Origin: Podarcis bocagei
Taxonomy: Eukaryota
DNA: 64,000 bases
Assembly: GCA_964188305.1 (NCBI GenBank)
Contig: OZ076890.1
Reading direction: 5' to 3' (one strand)
In this document: positions 13,742 through 64,000 of the stretch, piece after piece
How the letters are laid out: each line of letters starts with the position of its first letter
Position numbering within the stretch: the first letter of the stretch is position 1
Program-made: the position numbers and the translations under genes
Notes under the pieces: generated by a model
What the model saw: the letters and a program-made list of their open reading frames with translations, nothing else
Told to the model about the DNA's origin: nothing
Database searches by the model: none

Positions 13742-14212
13742 CAGTGGCGTAGCGTGGGTTCTCAGCACCCGGGGCAAGGCAAGTAATTTGCGCCCCCTAA
13801 CCCATGGATTTTAGCACTCGAGTCTCTTCCGCGCCCCCCCAGATGTTGTGCCAGGTGCAGCAGGCCCCCCTGCACCCCCCACGCTACGCCACTGCTCCCA
13901 CCACAAGTCTTCAGGACAGCCATCCGAAGGCTGGCGCGGGGAGAAGGTCTCTCCACCCCACCGCCAGGCTTCGGAGCAGCCATCCGAAGGCTGGCGCGGG
14001 GAGAAGGTCTCTCCGCCCCACCGCCAGGCTTCGGAGCAGCCTTCCGAAGGCTGGCGGCGGGAGGAGGTCTCTCCGCCCCACCGCCAGCCTTCGGAGGAGG
14101 TCCGAGGACAGTGGGGTTCCTGCTTCCTCGAGGAGGGCCGGCCAAACGCGCCCCCCCAAATGTTGCGCCCGATGCGGCCGGCACCCCTGGCACCCCCCAC
14201 GCTACGCCACTG
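13742..14212. mobile_element. hAT-type non-autonomous DNA transposon with internal 60-bp tandem repeats
   Basis: TIRs CAGTGGCGTAGCGTGGG…CCCACGCTACGCCACTG; perfect 8-bp TSD ATAGACCT at 13734-13741 and 14213-14220. Confidence 0.85.
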
Positions 14213-15846
14213 ATAGACCTAGAATCACAGTTTGCATTAGCTCACATAGGCTTCTAGCACTGCATAAGAACAAGAATAGTTCAGGAAAATATGAGGAAAA
14301 AGAACGAGAGAAGAGCAAATAGTGATGGGAGAGTTAAATACATTAATGCTAAAACAACAAGCTTAAAGTGCTGCTGCAAATGAAGGAAAATGAGGTGTGT
14401 ATTGCTACAAGACCAGAAGTTGCCTAGTGAGGTATCTGAGTAGATATTCATGGTAAACCAAAGTAACAGAAGGAAGTGAGAAAATGGGAAGGCAGGTGAA
14501 GAAACCAGAGGCAGCAAAAGGGTCCATTTTAAAAAGGAGGTTAATTTACTTACAGTCTTTCCAAACCACTTTTCAAGATAGCTTGAAGCAATAAATTATT
14601 TCCTTAAAAGAATGGAATATAGTCCTGCCCTGTAGGGGAGCAGAGAACCAGTCTTTGGCTCATCTCTGTGAAAGCCCTTCAGGTATCTGAAAAGTGTTAT
14701 CATGTCCCCTCTCAGTCTTCACTACTCTAGGGAAAAGAAAATGTTTACACCACATTTTCACCCAATTGCATATACCACAGTCCTCCATGTTTCCCAGCGC
14801 TGGCCCAGAAAGTCCTTAAACAAGCACCATGTTTAGCATTCTTGCACCTGAATTTTCCTGAGATGAACAACTGCCACTTAATCATTCCCATCATTGCTGA
14901 TCCTCTTTCTTGCTCCACCCCCACCCACCAGCAGTGAACATAGACCTTCCTGGTGCACCCAGAGAGAGCTGCCCTACAGTCTTTGCCACCAGCTTCTGAA
15001 GTCTCTGTGCTGGTAGAAAGGGCTGCTGTAATTGCCCCTTTCAACTGAGACCGGATAAATTTTCATAGGGATTTTTCTTCTGTTTTTCTCTGCTTAAAAA
15101 AAATGCAAAGTGATGCAGAAACTGAGATTCATCCATACCTCTCTAAAAACACGTGCAATTGAATTATCACACATCTAGGCTTAGTTCCATTGCTTGAGAA
15201 CATCAGTATAACATCCCTTTGTGAGGGAGCTGAAAACAGGCCACTGCAATGACAATCTACTATTGCCATTTGCATTTGACAACTGAGTTGCAGAGAGCTG
15301 ACTAGAAGACAGCTGGTACAAAACATGTGAATCTCATCTAGAGTAACTACTAAAATTTCACTACAATGAAAATTCAATTTAGAGGTTTTCTCCTCGGGCA
15401 AAGGATCGGAACAATTTCTAGGAAAGCCAAGAAATTTTATTTGCAGTAGACTCCAAGTCCATTCCACAATCAGTTCCTCCCCAGCTGAAACCTAGGATTC
15501 TGCACTGCTTTCTGTAGAAATATAATGTCAGCAAAATCAACGAACGCCATTTTTGTCCTGCAATTGAATACAGAATTACCCTGATTCTCTGTCCTTGCTG
15601 AAGCTCTAGGGTACACAGGCAGCTCCTATGACCATATGGACATTCTCAAATGGGGATGTATATCCCCATTTCATTTGCTTTATTTATACATAACCTCATT
15701 GCATTTGGAAAGTTGCTCCAATTTAGGAATGAACTGGATGGTTTGTACTCATCAATAGCTCCCTGTATGCCTTAGTGCTCCTGCCAAACGTTCAGTTTGG
15801 GATAATGATCTTTTAAAACATTACTTGAACTAAATAAGCTAGAAAT

Positions 15847-56212: not shown

Positions 56213-56933
56213 TAAGTTTCTTTTCTATCCCCCCCCCCATTTAACGGGCATTGGGTAAACAGGTAGATCAATGTTTCACCTATCCATGTCAAGCAGGTGC
56301 TTGTATGGCCTGTTCTTCCCTCCACTTATCTGCCCCAATCCCATAATGAAGATCTGCAGTCAGAAATAGGTTTTGATATATGCAGCTAATGCAGATGGGT
56401 CCATCTTTATCATAATACTCACTGGGTCTCCACTGAACTGGCTAGACACCTCTTTGGGTGCATGTGGGCATTAACCAACTATTGCATGCAAGACTAGAGC
56501 AGGACTAGTTGTTTAGATTGTCAGCAGGAGCAAGGTTCTGTTTTCCACACACTTTTTTCTTCCCTATGTTGGTTCTTCAATTTTGAAGCACATTTCTAGA
56601 CTCTGTCATTCTAATTCCCACCCATGCCCCTTCTATCAAATCGCCCTCCATGTTCTCAGTTTGGTGCTCACCTACTAAATTAGAATGAAGGATGAAGGAT
56701 GAGCTCACAAAATAATCTTAAAAATTGTGTTTATGTGTTTCCAAAGACACAGCATGTATATTCAATTTAACAATTGTTCTCTTCCTTTTCTGCCACATTA
56801 ACAAAATTAAGATGCACTTCAGACTGAAAGACAGGGGCAATCCAATGTGGTTGAAAACACTGCACTTTCATGATATATTTTTTTTAACCTTTTAAAAAAG
56901 GAAAGTAAAAAAGAAACAAACTGAGATCTTCCC

Positions 56934-56943
56934 CAAGATGGCG
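56934..56943 (+). promoter_or_regulatory. YY1-type motif CAAGATGGCG near the LINE 5' end (candidate internal Pol II promoter element)
   Basis: Matches the YY1 consensus (AAGATGGCG) 11 nt from the inferred 5' end, analogous to the YY1 site in the human L1 5' UTR. Confidence 0.55.
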
Positions 56944-57496
56944 CCGAGGTAAGACGCTCTTATCGGAGCTCAAAGAATTTCTTAACTAAATGCCTTTGTT
57001 GCCGGCTCTCCTCCTTCTTCTGGATTTTATTTCCTTTCGCTACTTCGCTGGGCTTTTGAACATCTTATCTTATCCTCCTCGGTGCCGGGACTTAGTGAAG
57101 TTAATGAAGTTTTAACGAAGGCTCTCAGACATTCCCTCCCGGGCATTAAGGCACTCCCTCCCAGTTTCTCGTTGACTCCTCGTGACAAACTTATCCCAAG
57201 GATCTTTAAGGACCTCTAATGGGCTTTTAACCCTAAAAACTATAAATTTATAAAACCACAAATTTCTCCCACCACCTCTAATTTCGTGGACCCCCAAACA
57301 TCTCAGCTGTTTTAACAAACTGAGAAGAAGGGGGGGGATACTTCAAAGGAGTGCTCTAATTGGACCCAGTTTTAAACTCCTCGCAGCAGCCCAGCCAGGA
57401 CTGAATGAGAACTGAATGAGATTGCGACCTGAGAACTTTAACACTCTATCACTCCGTTTAAAAGTCTGATCTCATTGATTTAAGAAGAATCTAGCA

Positions 57497-59137
57497 ATGA
57501 GAAGAGCCAAAAGACTCAGATGTTCTGATACAGAAACTGACGCAGAGCCCTCCGGTTTCAAACAGAGTAATCTAGATAATTACCTGCTACCTCAAAAACA
57601 GCACATATCTCCTCCCAAAACCTTCCTCAATTCTTTACATGGAAAGACAGTTGAAGAGATATCCCTAGGAATAAATGAGGACAAGGCTACTACTCCCATA
57701 ATCGAGGCACAAGTGCTAATTGATAGAAAGGTGGAGCTGCTGGAGGAATGCTGCCTAATGACTGCTCAAACAGTTCAAAAAATCTTTGAACAATTACAAA
57801 ACATCTCCAAGAAGCTGGATAACCCAGATGAAAGGAGGCAACTCACTCCCTTTTTGCCATCCTTAATAAGCCCTGGAGACAAACAGAACAAATACAAATT
57901 TATACCTCTAAACCAGCCAAAAACCAGAGGAAGCCCCCCTCACTCAGTCAACCTGATACTGAGGCCATGCGAGATTGTTCTCCACATTTTTCCATATAGA
58001 GGGCCCCTACCTTACTGGGAGTCATCCTTCTGGGCCAGACACCATCTAAATCTGCTCCTAGGCCTTGAGGGTGGAAGCATCGACCTAAAAGCAGTCAAGA
58101 GGCTCACTAACGATGGACATTCCAAAAAAGTACTACTAAAATTTGGTAGTCATAGAATTCCAACCAAAATCCTAAGGGTAAAGGCTTATTTAGCCCAGAA
58201 AGGAATTATTCCGTGTCGACACTTTGAAGATATATCACTCAGACCATTGATTGCATCTAAAAGACAGAACAAGATGAATAAGGCCATTCTACCAGAAGCC
58301 GACATCTGCCCTACTCCCGTGGAAGAACCCAGTAGATGGGAGAAACCGCAGCCAGCTACCCGGGAAATCACACAAGAAAAATCCAAGCTCTCAAACCAAG
58401 CGACTGTAGCATCAAATAACAGCCTCGCCCTTGATACAATAGACTGGACAGTCCCAGAAGAAGTAGATCTGCTGAGTAACTTTACCAAGCTACCAGACAA
58501 AGAACAAATAAACATACTCAGTAAATTGACGAAACTACAGGCCAGATTGACCGAAATTCACCAACAAGGGCAACAAAATGCAGTAGAAACAATACACAAT
58601 CAAACTTTACACTTTCCAGCCCTCTCCCCTAAATGCATAGTCAAAAAGAAAGCCACCAATGGAACTTTCAAATGTATAGATGCAGACCTTCAAATCCAGC
58701 CTCCTTTAGAATATGAAATGGCAAGGAAAAACTCCAGCAATGAGACCACAAATTCCTGGCTGAGATATCAAATACTAGCTCTAAACGAAATAGGTACCCC
58801 TTATTTAAGTACTACAAAGGACTCTAACATTGCTGAAAAAAAGATGACCTCCAACAGACCTGATTCACTGAGCCCAACATCAAATGAGGCCAAAGAAATG
58901 GAACTAGAGACTGAAAACAGTCCTACTGTCCACAACAGTCTACCAACCACAGAAATTTCTCAGGAACAAGGAATAGTTAAGGAAGAAAACCAAGAAAGGG
59001 AGGAAATCTTAATTTCCCGCACTTTAAAAAAGAATCTAAAAGACCCACCATTATGTTCCCCGCCGAAAGCAGTGACAAATGGCTGTATCTGCACAAGACA
59101 AAATCCCTCGCTGGACTCAATAACAGAACTAGAATGA
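57497..59137 (+). CDS. LINE ORF1 protein (546 aa), putative RNA-binding/chaperone
   Basis: Long uninterrupted ORF directly upstream of the APE-RT ORF. Basic N-terminus (MRRAKRLR), amphipathic helical segment (VELLEECCLMTAQTVQKIFEQLQNISKKLD), central hydrophobic/basic domain possibly RRM-like (inference), low-complexity S/T/E/N/K-rich C-terminal half. Confidence 0.85.
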   Translation: MRRAKRLRCSDTETDAEPSGFKQSNLDNYLLPQKQHISPPKTFLNSLHGKTVEEISLGINEDKATTPIIEAQVLIDRKVELLEECCLMTAQTVQKIFEQLQNISKKLDNPDERRQLTPFLPSLISPGDKQNKYKFIPLNQPKTRGSPPHSVNLILRPCEIVLHIFPYRGPLPYWESSFWARHHLNLLLGLEGGSIDLKAVKRLTNDGHSKKVLLKFGSHRIPTKILRVKAYLAQKGIIPCRHFEDISLRPLIASKRQNKMNKAILPEADICPTPVEEPSRWEKPQPATREITQEKSKLSNQATVASNNSLALDTIDWTVPEEVDLLSNFTKLPDKEQINILSKLTKLQARLTEIHQQGQQNAVETIHNQTLHFPALSPKCIVKKKATNGTFKCIDADLQIQPPLEYEMARKNSSNETTNSWLRYQILALNEIGTPYLSTTKDSNIAEKKMTSNRPDSLSPTSNEAKEMELETENSPTVHNSLPTTEISQEQGIVKEENQEREEILISRTLKKNLKDPPLCSPPKAVTNGCICTRQNPSLDSITELE

Positions 59138-62100
59138 CTAAATGCTGTCAACCAGCCATCAACTCAAAAACGGATCCTACGCTTGCTGTCCTGGAATATT
59201 GCAGGGTGGGGAAACAAAGACGGAGACCCAGACCTAATGAACTTCCTTAAAGATTTTGAATTAATACTTCTACAAGAAACATGGTCAACTAGAGATATTA
59301 AAATCAATGGATTCACCTCCTATACGAAACCCGCAGTGAAAACAAACACGAAGGGCCGGCCGAAAGCAGGGTTCTGTTGCATGATCAAAGACAACTTAGG
59401 GTTTGAAATCAAGCAGCTAGAAAAATGCTTACCACTTGCACAAGCTCTACTTTTAACCCAAAAAGACGATACTTTGCTACTTGTAAATGTCTATATCCCC
59501 CCAACCAAAAACAACAGCAGCAGTGAAAATTGGTCACAACTAACCTTTTATATAGAAAATTTGATCGATAAATACCCAAATGCCTCACTGATAATAGCAG
59601 GTGATTTTAATGCCAGAGTGGGAACCAACAATGAACAACTATGTAGCAAACTAAATTGGAATACTGATAATGATATCGCACATGCTCTGAAAATAGGACG
59701 ATTCTCCAGAGATAGGGTTGTAAACAACGAAGGCTTACGCCTACTTGAATTATGTAACAACTTTAATTTGCAGATTGTGAACGGTTCAACAAAAGGCGAT
59801 AGAAGCGGGGAGTTTACATACTTCTCCCCCCGAGGATGCAGTGTCATCGACTATATTCTTGTCCCTTATAATATTATAAATTCAATCATGGACCTCAAAA
59901 TTGGAACGCGTACTGAAAGCGACCATCAGCCATTATTGCTGTCTATTAACTTAAAGGACGAAACCAAAATAACCAAGTACAATATCATAGAACCTTCTCA
60001 ATACAAACAAATGACCCAATTAAAATGGTCCCAGGAAATGAGTGCAGCAGTGGGGCAAAAACTTACAGCCAACCTGAGAAAACAAGTATTATCCAACTTA
60101 AAGACCACTAATCCCTACAGTGATATTCCGAAAATTTATAATGAAATCTTCCAAATGTTCGTAGAGCTTAGTACTCCACCTAAAGTTTGGGTACTTAAAC
60201 ATAGCGCTAGCCCTTGGTTTGATGATGAATGTTTCCAGCTAAAAAGAAAGCTGCGCCAAACATTTAAAAATAATCGCGCTAAACTAGAGCCCTCTTATCT
60301 TGATGAAAAAAGACAATACCATTACATTCTGGCCGAAAAGAAACAGAAATATGCAACCCAAAAATGGCTACAATTACTCGACTCAATTCAGAGTAAAAAC
60401 AACAAAGCGTTCTGGAACCTGGTGTACGGAGGATTGAAAGCCGAAAACCAACTAACTCTACCACCAATTGCAGAATCCAAATGGTCCCAATACTTCACAT
60501 CTGTATTTAACAATCTACACAGTGAACTCAAAGGAAATGAGACCACTAAAAATAAAATCAATAAACTCCAGGAGTGGCCAAGGGTAGAAGAAGAGGAAAT
60601 TAGAGAGATAGTTAAAAATTTCAAATCGGGGAAATCTCCTGGGCCAGATGGTCTACCAATAGAATTATTCAAGACCTATATAGATTGGTGGGCAGAACCC
60701 TTAGCTCAATTGTTTACTCTCATAGATAAATATGGGATCATACCTGAGATATGGTTAAGATCAATAATTATCCCAATCTTTAAAAACGGTGACCCAAAAG
60801 AACCAAGGAATTACAGACCGATAAGCCTATTATCAGTGATAGGGAAAATCTACGCCAAGCACCTTTTATCTAAACTTCTTACCTGGATGAAAAATCTAAA
60901 TTTACCAGGGAAAGAACAAATAGGTTTCTCCAAAGGTTGCTCTACATTAGACCACTGCCTTATACTTATGCATTTGGTTGAAAAATATAGATCCCAAAGG
61001 CAATCTAAGATATATGCTGCTTTTGTAGACTTTCGTGGTGCATTCGACTCAATTGACCGCCCAAAGCTGTGGAGGAAACTCGCAGAATTAAAAATTGATC
61101 AACGCTTATTGATTCTAATACAAAATCTATACTCTTCCAATACCTGTCAAGTCAAACTTAACACCAAAGGTCACCTTTCATCAGACATCCCAAACTCGAA
61201 AGGGGTAAAACAAGGGTGTATTCTCGCTCCCTTTCTATTTAATTTATTTTTATCAGACTTGCCAGATCACCTCCAAAAAATAGATTCACATGCCCCTAAA
61301 CTTAATCAGAAACCAGTTCCTCTCTTATTATACGCAGACGATGCTGTCCTACTATCATTAACGAGCTTGGGTCTGAAACGTCTTATATCTTCTCTGATCC
61401 TTTACTGCGAATGTAACAAACTCTCTATAAATTATGAGAAGACAAAAATTTTGGTCTTCTCGAATGGTTGGAAATTAGAGAAATGGAAAATAAGAGGGCA
61501 AGAAATCCAACAAGTGAAAATCTATAGGTATCTGGGAATCTTATTCCAGAGCAATTTAGGGTGGGCAAATCATCGCACAAATGCCATAAAACAGGCAAAG
61601 TGTACCTCATCAGCAGTTGCCCGTTTTTATTATCAGAAAGGTAATCAATTTATTCCTGCGGCCAATCAGATATTTCAAACAAAAGTGCAATCCCAGATAT
61701 TCTATGGAATCCCGCTATGGGTCCAAGCATATAACAGTGATTTAAAAAAGATTCACTCCAGCTTTCTGAGACGTATTCTTGGACTCCCAGCTGTGATCAA
61801 ATATGAAACAATGTGTGCAGAAATAGGCATACACACAATGGAATATTGGGCATGGTCCACCTCAATAAAGTACTGGTTACGCTGCCATTTTCGCTGCCCT
61901 CCATCAAGTCTGCTCGCTGATTTGCTCAAAGACTCCTATAAATCAAGATGGTATCAGTACCTCGAAAAAAAGATTGAATCTTTAGGCATCGAGCTGGAGC
62001 CCCTGTACAATTCTAATGAGCAATACATTTTCCATAATATCCTAACTAGACTAAAGGATGTCGAGAGACAAAATATTATGGCAGCTGTAAACAAAATTTG

Positions 62101-62482
62101 CTCCCCCATATTCTATGATTTAAATATCCTAGACAGCAGAGCCAATTACGTCACTAAATTAATAATCCCAGCCCAACGTAGGGCTTTTATGCTGGCCCGT
62201 TTGAATGTTTTTCCCTCAGCATTTGTCAGGGGAAGATATCAAAACATTCCTAGAAACAAGAGATTCTGCAGATGTTCTATGAATGTCCCGGACACTGTAG
62301 AGCATATTCTCTTTCATTGCCCATTGTACAGTATCCCACGTCAACGCGTGCTGTCCCCTCTTTTGGGTGGTCTGGAACCCCAGCAAGGTGAATGTGTGGG
62401 ATTCTGCCTATCCGACGTCGACCAAAGGGTAACGGCGGGGGTAGCCGAGTTTTTGGCAGCAGTCCTCCAAGGAGCAGGTTAA
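59138..62482 (+). CDS. LINE ORF2: apurinic-like endonuclease + reverse transcriptase + C-terminal Cys/His motif (open from the codon after the ORF1 stop; start codon unresolved)
   Basis: APE motifs SWNIAG, LQETW, NVYIPP, GDFNA, IDYI, SDH. RT motifs SPGPDG, NYRPISLL, FVDFRGAFDS, GVKQGCILAPFLFNLF, LYADD, YRYLG. C-terminal CRC-x9-H-x4-C. No stop codons over about 3.3 kb. The ORF track starts it at a TTG (59183), but the frame is open back to 59138. Confidence 0.95.
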   Translation, partial: LNAVNQPSTQKRILRLLSWNIAGWGNKDGDPDLMNFLKDFELILLQETWSTRDIKINGFTSYTKPAVKTNTKGRPKAGFCCMIKDNLGFEIKQLEKCLPLAQALLLTQKDDTLLLVNVYIPPTKNNSSSENWSQLTFYIENLIDKYPNASLIIAGDFNARVGTNNEQLCSKLNWNTDNDIAHALKIGRFSRDRVVNNEGLRLLELCNNFNLQIVNGSTKGDRSGEFTYFSPRGCSVIDYILVPYNIINSIMDLKIGTRTESDHQPLLLSINLKDETKITKYNIIEPSQYKQMTQLKWSQEMSAAVGQKLTANLRKQVLSNLKTTNPYSDIPKIYNEIFQMFVELSTPPKVWVLKHSASPWFDDECFQLKRKLRQTFKNNRAKLEPSYLDEKRQYHYILAEKKQKYATQKWLQLLDSIQSKNNKAFWNLVYGGLKAENQLTLPPIAESKWSQYFTSVFNNLHSELKGNETTKNKINKLQEWPRVEEEEIREIVKNFKSGKSPGPDGLPIELFKTYIDWWAEPLAQLFTLIDKYGIIPEIWLRSIIIPIFKNGDPKEPRNYRPISLLSVIGKIYAKHLLSKLLTWMKNLNLPGKEQIGFSKGCSTLDHCLILMHLVEKYRSQRQSKIYAAFVDFRGAFDSIDRPKLWRKLAELKIDQRLLILIQNLYSSNTCQVKLNTKGHLSSDIPNSKGVKQGCILAPFLFNLFLSDLPDHLQKIDSHAPKLNQKPVPLLLYADDAVLLSLTSLGLKRLISSLILYCECNKLSINYEKTKILVFSNGWKLEKWKIRGQEIQQVKIYRYLGILFQSNLGWANHRTNAIKQAKCTSSAVARFYYQKGNQFIPAANQIFQTKVQSQIFYGIPLWVQAYNSDLKKIHSSFLRRILGLPAVIKYETMCAEIGIHTMEYWAWSTSIKYWLRCHFRCPPSSLLADLLKDSYKSRWYQYLEKKIESLGIELEPLYNSNEQYIFHNILTRLKDVERQNIMAAVNKICSPIFYDLNILDSRANYVTKLIIPAQRRAFMLARLNVFPSAFVRGRYQNIPRNKRFCRCSMNVPDTVEHILFHCPLYSIPRQRVLSPLLGGLEPQQGECVGFCLSDVDQRVTAGVAEFLAAVLQGAG

Positions 62483-64000
62483 CAACGAAAACCACTGATT
62501 TTATATGTATATATATATATATGTATGTAGCCAACTGCTGCCTTTTATATATATTTCAAAGCTTTTATATGTTATTTCCTCTTTTATGGTTTTATTTGCA
62601 CAATGCCTAATAAAGGTTTGATAAGTAAGTAGAAACAAAACTCACTAAATCTATAAATTAGCACACCAGGGAGCAAAGTTTGTAGCCTCACCCTCTCCCT
62701 GATTGCAAAGAATTTGTTTCTGTGGGGTAACATTCAAAATTTTGCACGCTTGCACTTTGAAATAATATTGTGTGTCTTTGCACTGCATAATTTTACTGTA
62801 GAGTTTTGGTTTTGAGTCAAGTTGCTTATTCAATTACCACCAATGAAGTTACTGAGTGTCTGGCTCTGTGTGAAGGCAAATATGACTTCGAAGAGAGATG
62901 GAGGTGGCTTGCTAGTGCTGCTACTCTCTGGGGTGTGTTCTCTGTTAGACCTGCTTTGAAGCTCCTCACATTGTACAGAGTAAATGAGATAAAAACTACT
63001 TGTATTGGTTTTACCAATAATATCACCAACACAGTGCATGCATTCAGTTCTGCAACTGTTTTTAAAACGTTTATTTTATGTAAGATGTAAAATGTAAGAT
63101 GTAAGATGAATGCATCGTCACATCTATCCTCTTTTAAAACTGGGAAAATAAATGGCATGCAGCTCCTCTGATGCACAAGGGAGAGGCATGGAAGAGGGCT
63201 GACACATCTCCTTGTCAGGGAAAGCAATTTGCTGAGCCGGCATTTGACTTGCTGCTATATGTATGTCCATAATGTAACAAGTGGTGAAGGGGAGTTCATA
63301 CTGTGAGTGTAGAATATAGGATTGCAGCTTTAAATAGCTTGGAAATAATATTTATCTCACTGTTTTGGGTGGATGGCAGAAGCAGACACAGGGGTGAGGA
63401 AATGTGCTGTTTTGATTTGTTTTGTACAAAGGAGTCCAATTGTTTCACCTAGCTAAGAAGCAAATGAATGAAAAGTGGAGTCATGGATTCAAACATCACA
63501 CAGTAAGGTTATATCACTCATGCTCCACAACCATACTGTGTGCATTGCCAAAACAAGTTGGAAAAGCAGGCATTACTTGGCAGAGGCAAAAAGAAAAGCA
63601 TCTCTACTGAGTCTTTCCTAGTTCAAAAATGTAAACAGCGGTTCATATTATACTACTTATTGTACAGAGTTTTTCTAACTAAACCAACTTCTTGTAATGG
63701 TCTTACTTGGTTGGTGGATCACAGCCAAAAAGGCATCTGGTTTGAAAACTTTCCAAAAATACAACTGGTTATTTGAAGAAATTTCCCCAGGGTATACGTA
63801 TGTATTCAATATATATTTTTAAACCACCTCATTTCTATACTGCACAGCTGCTGAAGCTCTTTGAGCAGTTCAAAAGATAATGCCAGTGTTCACCTTTCCA
63901 GAGATCCACTGCTGACAAACCATAGTTCTGTTATTTGTGCCTTAGAGGGCTTATGCTTATCTGATATAAAAGCTCAGCTACCCCCATCACAGATATTTTC

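Follow-up and report, generated by a model that had tools for sequence, protein, structure and literature searches.

How the second protein is made in long interspersed nuclear elements (LINEs) with two open reading frames (ORFs) is an open question, and the cases that have been studied, human L1 and Bombyx SART1, are described as termination followed by reinitiation (PMC5972666, PMC2881922, PMC5009743; here and below, papers are cited for those parts of their text that were available). The question is raised by a LINE in a stretch of 64,000 nucleotides from Podarcis bocagei (GenBank assembly GCA_964188305.1, contig OZ076890.1), hereafter the window, in which ORF1 and ORF2 share one frame and are separated by a single TGA. 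From the sequence comparisons reported below, we consider it very likely that a small share of the ribosomes makes an ORF1-endonuclease-reverse transcriptase (ORF1-EN-RT) fusion by programmed readthrough of UGA-CUA. The features of the element on which this argument rests are as follows.

56927..62631, + strand: full-length copy of a LINE of the apurinic/apyrimidinic endonuclease (APE) type; ends from comparison with 20 further copies
57497..59137, + strand: ORF1, 546 amino acids, ATG at 57497, stop TGA at 59135-59137; from the ORF list
59135..59143, + strand: candidate readthrough signal TGA CTA AAT; from copies and family comparison
59138..59170, + strand: stop-free linker of 11 codons, predicted disordered (residues 1-11, predicted local distance difference test score, pLDDT, < 50); from the structure model
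59174..59197, + strand: endonuclease strand beta-1, ILRLLSWN, with the conserved Asn; from the model (residues 13-20, pLDDT about 82)
59237..59239, + strand: earliest in-frame ATG of ORF2, residue 34; from sequence and model
59138..62482, + strand: ORF2, 1114 codons, terminal TAA at 62480-62482; from the ORF list, Pfam and the model

The original prediction had described an in-frame junction with one stop, and this was confirmed. Past the TGA at 59135-59137, which is followed by CTA, the same frame reads CTA AAT GCT ... (LNAVNQPSTQKRILRLLSWN) and was found to be open for 1114 codons, to 62482. The placement of the earliest in-frame ATG (59237) on the 3' side of the conserved W-N (59192-59197) also held; in a structure comparison, the W-N of the endonuclease profile aligned with T-L-N of the human L1 endonuclease. 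Since Met34 lies downstream of strand beta-1, a start at this AUG would delete that strand. Gene calling was seen to start such ORF2s at false near-cognate codons; the protein P0001, for example, begins one codon before SWN.

Searched at the DNA level, the own genome (1.6 Gb) gave 141 candidates; 40 were scored, and 30 loci were retrieved. TGA-CTA was in frame in all 30 fetched copies, which were 93-100% identical and contained no single-nucleotide indel. When the six junction bases were left free in the search, TGACTA was present in all 100 matches listed of 115. Of these 100 copies, 74 sit on one 96-Mb contig (G000 C19), often as inverted pairs 12-19 kb apart; they look like segmental duplicates or amplified palindromic sequence and are not independent. 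No alternative letter at 59135-59140 was found in contigs from four public runs, each labelled as a different organism. The junction is thus fixed across the copies of the family, and two explanations raised beside the original prediction fall. One took the ATG at 59134 as the true start, with one extra base in this copy, and no copy lacking one base was found (30/30 fetched, 100/100 listed); the other took the stop as a private nonsense mutation, whereas the stop is common to the same copies. A complete ORF2 of 1114-1115 codons was present in 15 of 20 further copies fetched whole, and the EN and RT differences between subfamilies were mostly synonymous (33 synonymous against 9 non-synonymous codons in an RT example). 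It is therefore functional elements that carry the junction, and the LINE of the window is intact and recently active.

A census of related families in the own genome, blind to the junction, was based on the endonuclease motif W-N-[IV]-A-G-W, which matched 787 places (reversed control, 0), 200 of them listed; 60 loci were supplied and 40 were chosen to cover each visibly different sequence. The motif was located in 195 of 240 own-genome loci; their contexts, 147 of them distinct, fell into 30 clusters at 80% identity, of which one was classed from its relatives. An initial pattern search that selected for TGACTA served as a lead only and is outside the counts. ORF1 and ORF2 were in frame across one stop in 22 of the 30 families, and the stop was TGA in all 22. 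Seventeen families contained TGA-C 13-19 codons ahead of the W (CTA in seven, CTG in three, CAA or CAG in six and CGG in one), one contained TGA-A with a spacing of 14 codons, and four contained TGA-A or TGA-T followed by a stop-free linker of 60-68 codons. Four families were of an overlap type, and four further ones were unclassed (two apparent chance matches and two degraded). In intact copies the frame upstream of the stop was a long ORF1 of up to 640 codons, and the ORF1 proteins of all junction types can be aligned.

The ORF2 proteins of seven intact representatives were 32-63% identical, and the short linkers differed in length (13-19 codons) and in sequence, so that neutral sites are saturated among these families; the leaky context, as the original prediction had expected, was nevertheless conserved among them. 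This bears on the view that the in-frame stop has no function of its own and is either a chance feature passed on by descent or an ancient nonsense change within one long ORF, with ORF2 supplied from elsewhere in trans. Related families do inherit their junctions jointly, and the distant loci described below come from unassigned hosts. Saturation, however, speaks against such an accident, and so does the presence of the stop in young copies with an intact ORF2 under purifying selection; we regard this view as very improbable.

The same census bears on reinitiation, in which ribosomes would stop at the TGA, restart at a non-AUG codon of the linker and make a separate ORF2 protein; the weak stop context might then merely slow termination. 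For L1 and SART1 this model has been published, and it still works when the AUG is lost (PMC5972666, PMC2881922). In the present families, a CTG directly follows the stop in 3 of the 17 TGA-C families, the linker of the window contains ATC, TTG and CTG, and an in-frame AUG is frequent in the long-linker families. However, reinitiation could do without an in-frame junction and without a leaky context, whereas the stop is TGA in 22 of 22 in-frame families and the linkers of in-frame families are always whole codons. An AUG of the L1/SART1 type, in the ORF2 frame before motif I, is absent from the window and present in the linker of 1 of the 17 TGA-C families; an overlapping ATGA occurs in five of the 17, out of frame. 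The TTG start candidate is missing from the subfamilies of 93-96% identity, and in most families the position two codons ahead of the W is not a near-cognate one. In 3 of the 17, no in-frame AUG and no near-cognate codon lies >= 5 codons before the W, which leaves them without a candidate start. The slippery-site branch described below is also left unexplained. Non-AUG reinitiation, which had been listed as an alternative to the original prediction, is weakened by these results, and we judge it unlikely. The long-linker families (L145/L146, G000 C2:22363090; L151, C4:97407142; L157/L099, C9:34774127) may use reinitiation at an AUG or a weaker readthrough. Among them, L157 was without an in-frame AUG; its ORF1 end is like that of L145, its ORF2 is sister to that of L092, and a Ser codon stands at the position of the TGA of L092, so that L157 is probably an ORF1 swap.

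The letters around the stop point to readthrough. Among off-frame stop triplets of the same elements, 33% were TGA and 6.5% were TGA-C, and none of 14 terminal stops of ORF2 was TGA-C (nine TAA, three TGA and two TAG). In the 17 TGA-C families, the first codon after the stop stands for Leu, Gln or Arg, whereas the bases show C at +4 in 17/17, a purine at +6 in 17/17, and A at +9 in all 10 non-CUA families and in three of the seven CUA families. As read from these alignments, conservation after the stop acts on the bases and not on the encoded residue. The TGA-CTA of the original prediction is invariant inside the family, and the wider signal across families is UGA-C[UAG]R-NNA, with mostly UAG-G elsewhere. 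The known readthrough classes are UAG-CAA-UYA, UGA-CGG/CUA and UAG-G, with CAR-NBA in yeast (PMC3159437), and the +4/+6/+9 pattern matches the CAR-YYA/CAR-NBA and UGA-CUA/CGG contexts listed in the same paper. By sequence, the stop contexts of these LINEs correspond to the three classes known from viral readthrough, UGA-C in the own genome and mostly UAG-G elsewhere. The window family has the sequence features of type II readthrough, an in-frame UGA followed by CUA or CGG with conservation at the level of bases; UGA-CUA by itself gave 1.5% readthrough in human cells (PMC4132726).

Distant relatives were sought in metagenome contigs with the endonuclease GDFNAR motif; at least 361 were confirmed, and the best 80, of 21-35% identity, were kept. 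Motif I was located in 62 of these 80, which gave 52 clusters at 60% identity. A long frame was joined to ORF2 across one stop in 25 of the 52 clusters, and the stops were 14 TAG-G, 3 TAG-C (one of them TAG-CAA-TCA), 1 TAG-A, 7 TGA and no TAA. The remaining clusters comprised 12 of other layout (ORF1 ends with TAA in eight; two of the 12 belong to one family with indels, and another is perhaps an in-frame case that has degraded) and 15 without an ORF1. TAA at the end of ORF1 was thus found in 0/25 in-frame against 8/12 other-layout clusters (Fisher p=1.3e-5), and TAA was found in 0/25 in-frame junctions against 7/18 terminal stops of ORF2 (p=0.001); TAG-G was found in 14/25 against 1/18 (p=0.00085). 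The linker was without AUG in 20 of the 25 clusters. Outside the 25, L221/L223 contained a TAG-GAC junction with 445 open codons. A changed genetic code is an unlikely reason for these stops, since the distant ORFs run for hundreds of codons with a single TAG at the junction and both TAG and TAA also terminate distant ORF2s. A coiled coil is expected in the ORF1s of LINEs, and weak coiled-coil matches were found in 4 of 12 distant upstream frames scanned. In the RT tree (143 sequences, root not tested), in-frame junctions are spread across the majority of branches, and this distribution suggests that the in-frame layout may be ancestral. Two side observations were made: the metagenome contig L181:3-1607 contained a fragment of a bacterial pyruvate:ferredoxin oxidoreductase in frame with a LINE ORF1 end (a chimera, probably a misassembly), and fragments of LINE-like RT sequences were present inside large viral genomes (contigs L242-L244 and L246-L250).

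The missing TAA could also be accounted for if the RNA were changed before translation, by A-to-I editing of UGA or UAG to a Trp codon, by splicing, or by use of an internal promoter. A single edit turns UGA or UAG, but never UAA, into UGG, and TGG was found at the stop in two single copies, L141 and L103. LINE proteins prefer to copy in cis the RNA that encoded them. On this premise, an edited or spliced RNA, if it is the one copied, should leave its change in the insertions, and such a change was seen in 0/100 listed copies, 1/13 and 1/20 loci. No joints or other letters were present at the junction in contigs of the four runs, in which rare variants are dropped, and neither the +4/+6/+9 pattern nor the frameshift branch is accounted for by editing or splicing; altered RNA is in our estimate hardly a credible source of the fusion. 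L141 (G000 C4:98476448-98483527) is otherwise intact, with TGG at the stop and 1729 open codons. It was examined as a permanently fused lineage and rejected, the TGG being private to one of 13 loci, with TGA-CTG kept in its relatives; L103 was rejected likewise (one of 20 loci). Among the distant relatives, L169 is open through the junction, and its relatives L168 and L186 carry indels there, which leaves the case ambiguous.

A second type of signal was found at the same joint. In three families (L152, L153 and L149), ORF1 and ORF2 overlap, with ORF2 in the -1 frame and without an AUG. Their ORF1 contained N-G-x-V-F-L-D, in which the codons GTT TTT TTA form an in-phase U_UUU_UUA, so that an X_XXY_YYZ heptamer lies in phase and conserved inside the overlap; it ends 77 nt upstream of the W in all three. 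The length of the T run was kept in 28 of 30 copies of one of these families, with one extra T in two, and the run was retained in a fourth, degraded overlap family. In a FastTree phylogeny rooted at the midpoint, with X used in reading broken copies, the three intact families form one clade with support 1.00, nested inside the TGA-C families. The stops of their ORF1s lie outside the ORF2 frame and are TAG-A, TAA-A and TAA-A; the leaky context, not needed in such a frame, is lost there. The slippery V-F-L codons fall in an ORF1 end motif of the NG-x8-9-LDxI type, which is also present in the other junction types. We infer that this branch replaced readthrough by -1 frameshifting, which would likewise yield such a fusion. 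The strongest argument that a fusion is made comes from this pair of unlike recoding-type signals at one joint, each giving ORF1-EN-RT. In four metagenome contigs (L165, L167, L171 and L229), ORF1 and ORF2 also overlap and ORF1 ends AAG ATT TTT TAA; these form a separate distant branch, grouped with an ant-derived protein in the tree, and a second, independent -1 slip at a stop is possible there.

Several results weigh against readthrough and against the fusion. The original prediction had proposed a stimulatory stem-loop 3' of the stop, and folding tests found none: the 166 nt from the stop of the window fold no better than shuffles (z=+1.14), and the mean z of the region just 3' of the stop was -1.0 for the own families (13) and +0.25 for the distant loci (24). 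By local folding, the 3' stem-loop of type II readthrough was therefore not found in the window, the own families or the distant loci; such a stem-loop is general, though not universal, in the UGA-CUA/CGG class (PMC3159437). Pairing of the linker with the 3' end of the element was not specific, the own pair ranking 7, 1, 4, 6, 5, 1 and 6 of 7 in the 7 of 21 loci in which the 3' end was located. The frameshift families showed no common hairpin at the usual spacing of 6-8 nt when their junctions were folded, and the fourth, degraded overlap family has an AUG two codons before the W. Five in-frame families lack the C at +4 (the short-linker TGA-A family and the four long-linker ones), an in-frame AUG is present in most of the four long-linker families, and an AUG precedes the W in 5 of the 25 in-frame clusters among the distant relatives. 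L1 and caliciviruses do not need an AUG to reinitiate (PMC5972666, PMC5009743), and the predicted gag-pol readthrough of Candida Tca2 was unsupported by reporters (PMC7175516). No permanently fused ORF lineage was established, and a weak search for relatives with a longer ORF1 found none. Among 18 RNA reads from four runs, none spanned the junction, and these are too few for expression, editing or splicing. The formal probabilities also overstate the independence of families that share ancestry. Two further folding results stand apart. Predicted stems in the frameshift families begin 9-15 nt downstream and differ between families (folding without pseudoknots). A recurring hairpin over the S-W-N-I-A-G-W codons was rejected as a signal (151/200 paired against 147 in the family-swap control, p=0.08, one of 25 rows out of register) and is explained by coding constraints.

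Nothing in the analyses that were run overturned the original prediction, although -1 frameshifting seems to take the place of readthrough in one nested branch. In readthrough of this junction, most ribosomes would stop at the UGA and release free ORF1 as the main product. In about one to a few percent of passages, a near-cognate tRNA would decode the UGA, which the C after the stop and the following bases would favour, and the ribosome would continue through the short flexible linker into the endonuclease, giving an ORF1-EN-RT protein of 1661 residues. The probably disordered ORF1 tail (370-546) and the linker would tether the enzyme in the fusion. Recoding would fix a high ratio of ORF1 to ORF2 and, as in retroviral Gag-Pol, would hold the enzyme at the ORF1 coat of its own RNA. 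Extended to the whole group, the reading is that a widespread group of LINEs ancestrally makes its EN-RT only as a Gag-Pol-like fusion, samples all three viral contexts and contains one lineage that moved to -1 frameshifting; we lean towards it, with clearly less assurance than for the window family. The slippery site would then have arisen from codons of the conserved ORF1 motif.

The other parts of the element and its flanks were assigned as follows.

56912..56922, + strand: probable target-site duplication, left copy, AGAAACAAACT; from sequence
56927..57496, + strand: 5' untranslated region; from sequence and copy ends
57563..57586, + strand: PIP-box-like peptide (QSNLDNYL) close to the N-terminal end of ORF1; comparable motifs occur in further families
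59078..59134, + strand: ORF1 C-terminal motif of the NG-x8-9-LDxI type; from ORF1 comparison among families
60794-61540, + strand: reverse transcriptase within ORF2; from Pfam
62267-62320, + strand: C-terminal Cys/His motif of ORF2; from sequence
62483..62631, + strand: 3' untranslated region with AATAAAG (62609-62615) and a (TAAG)n tail; from sequence and copies
62631..62642, + strand: probable target-site duplication, right copy, longer by one A; from sequence

The 5' ends were found at 56927-56935 among the 20 further copies, and the 3' end was AATAAAG followed by the (TAAG)n tail. The copies of the family contained no long terminal repeats (LTRs), and they shared a 3' end with a simple-repeat tail, varying 5' truncation and target-site duplications. 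ORF2 matched PF03372, PF14529 and PF00078, an APE endonuclease followed by an RT; its structure model had a mean pLDDT of 80, and the closest solved structures were human L1 ORF2p and the L1 endonuclease. The element is an APE-type LINE, that is, a non-LTR retrotransposon. In the model of ORF1 (mean pLDDT 51), a long helix at residues 68-108, an RRM-like domain at 153-245 and helices at 320-368 were predicted, followed by a low-confidence tail at 370-546, which is probably disordered. The RRM-like fold matched many RRM structures, but weakly (all E >= 1.4e-3), and a Pfam scan of ORF1 found nothing, esterase included. QSNLDNYL is called PIP-box-like on our assumption that it follows the PCNA-binding pattern, and a similar motif is present near the ORF1 N-terminus of L145, L159 and L092. 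In one clade (L094, L097, L102, L141 and L091), a PIP-box-like QxKITDFF was found about 15 codons upstream of the ORF1 stop, where a fusion would put it directly ahead of the endonuclease. Elsewhere in the window, a tandemly repeated unit in an open frame of 173 codons (13801-14322) is probably a minisatellite rather than a gene.

The class within the LINEs is given with reserve. By eye, the RT motifs of ORF2 agree with what we take to be the RTE-group pattern, and the C-terminal Cys/His motif, the microsatellite tail and the RTE-like RT motifs are, as we presume, traits shared with RTEX. The label RTE-group, RTEX-like is thus our assumption, made without named RTEX references, and does not establish membership. 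The RT tree sets the group apart from RTE-like proteins (proxy P0032). RTEX, unlike RTE, has an ORF1 (PMC3905857), and the full ORF1 of the window LINE is a likeness to RTEX that does not amount to membership (PMC3905857, PMC5753468); no esterase was found in the window ORF1 by Pfam, and recoding is unmentioned in the available text of the RTEX literature.

Among known systems, human L1 and Bombyx SART1 are two-ORF elements of the APE type, like the LINE of the window. In L1 a spacer of 63 nt and an AUG precede ORF2, in SART1 stop and start overlap, and in both ORF2p is described as being made separately (PMC5972666, PMC2881922). The LINE of the window differs from these in its single in-frame stop and in the lack of an AUG ahead of motif I. 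In the full texts available, readthrough in LINEs of animals or of the RTE group was not the subject of any paper that we found, and for no LINE did we find that it had been tested by experiment; Repbase and subscription papers are outside this coverage. Readthrough was suggested from consensus sequences for the Group 3 non-LTR retrotransposons of Paramecium tetraurelia (Guerin et al., 2017, PMC5405496), and ORF2 of the Dictyostelium elements TRE5-A and TRE3-A is said to require a -1 frameshift (PMC5911963). Paramecium Group 3 is a ciliate clade of its own, described by consensus sequences and, in the available text, with no context analysis or test, whereas the present case comes from a genome of vertebrate size that uses the standard code, and it comprises many families, readthrough contexts of defined type, internal controls and a switch to a -1 site in a nested branch.

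The proposed mechanism works like the recoding of retroviral gag-pol, but in a LINE. As in gammaretroviral gag-pol (UAG-G with a pseudoknot), a structural protein and a polymerase share a frame across a leaky stop, and alphavirus/tobravirus (UGA-CUA/CGG), tobamovirus (UAG-CAA-UYA) and gammaretroviral (UAG-G) contexts are all found among these LINEs (PMC3159437). Unlike the viral systems, the LINEs have no LTRs, protease or integrase, and no 3' stem-loop or pseudoknot was found by folding; without a protease, the fusion would probably not be cut by the element itself. The nested branch shares the U_UUU_UUA heptamer, in the right phase, with the U6A site of HIV-1 gag-pol (PMC3458567). Unlike HIV-1, it has no common stimulator at 6-8 nt, and its site lies inside a conserved ORF1 motif, among relatives of the readthrough type. 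One genome contains young, intact families of both the readthrough and the frameshift type, which makes direct testing and the swapping of signals possible, and the families matter for the annotation of ORF2 starts and supply a natural series of leaky-stop contexts. If the fusion is made, LINEs use the Gag-Pol solution of retroviruses too, with the ratio set by recoding, and the ORF1 part may deliver the enzyme to its own RNA; a retrovirus-like strategy of expression would then operate in elements that were thought to make ORF2p separately.

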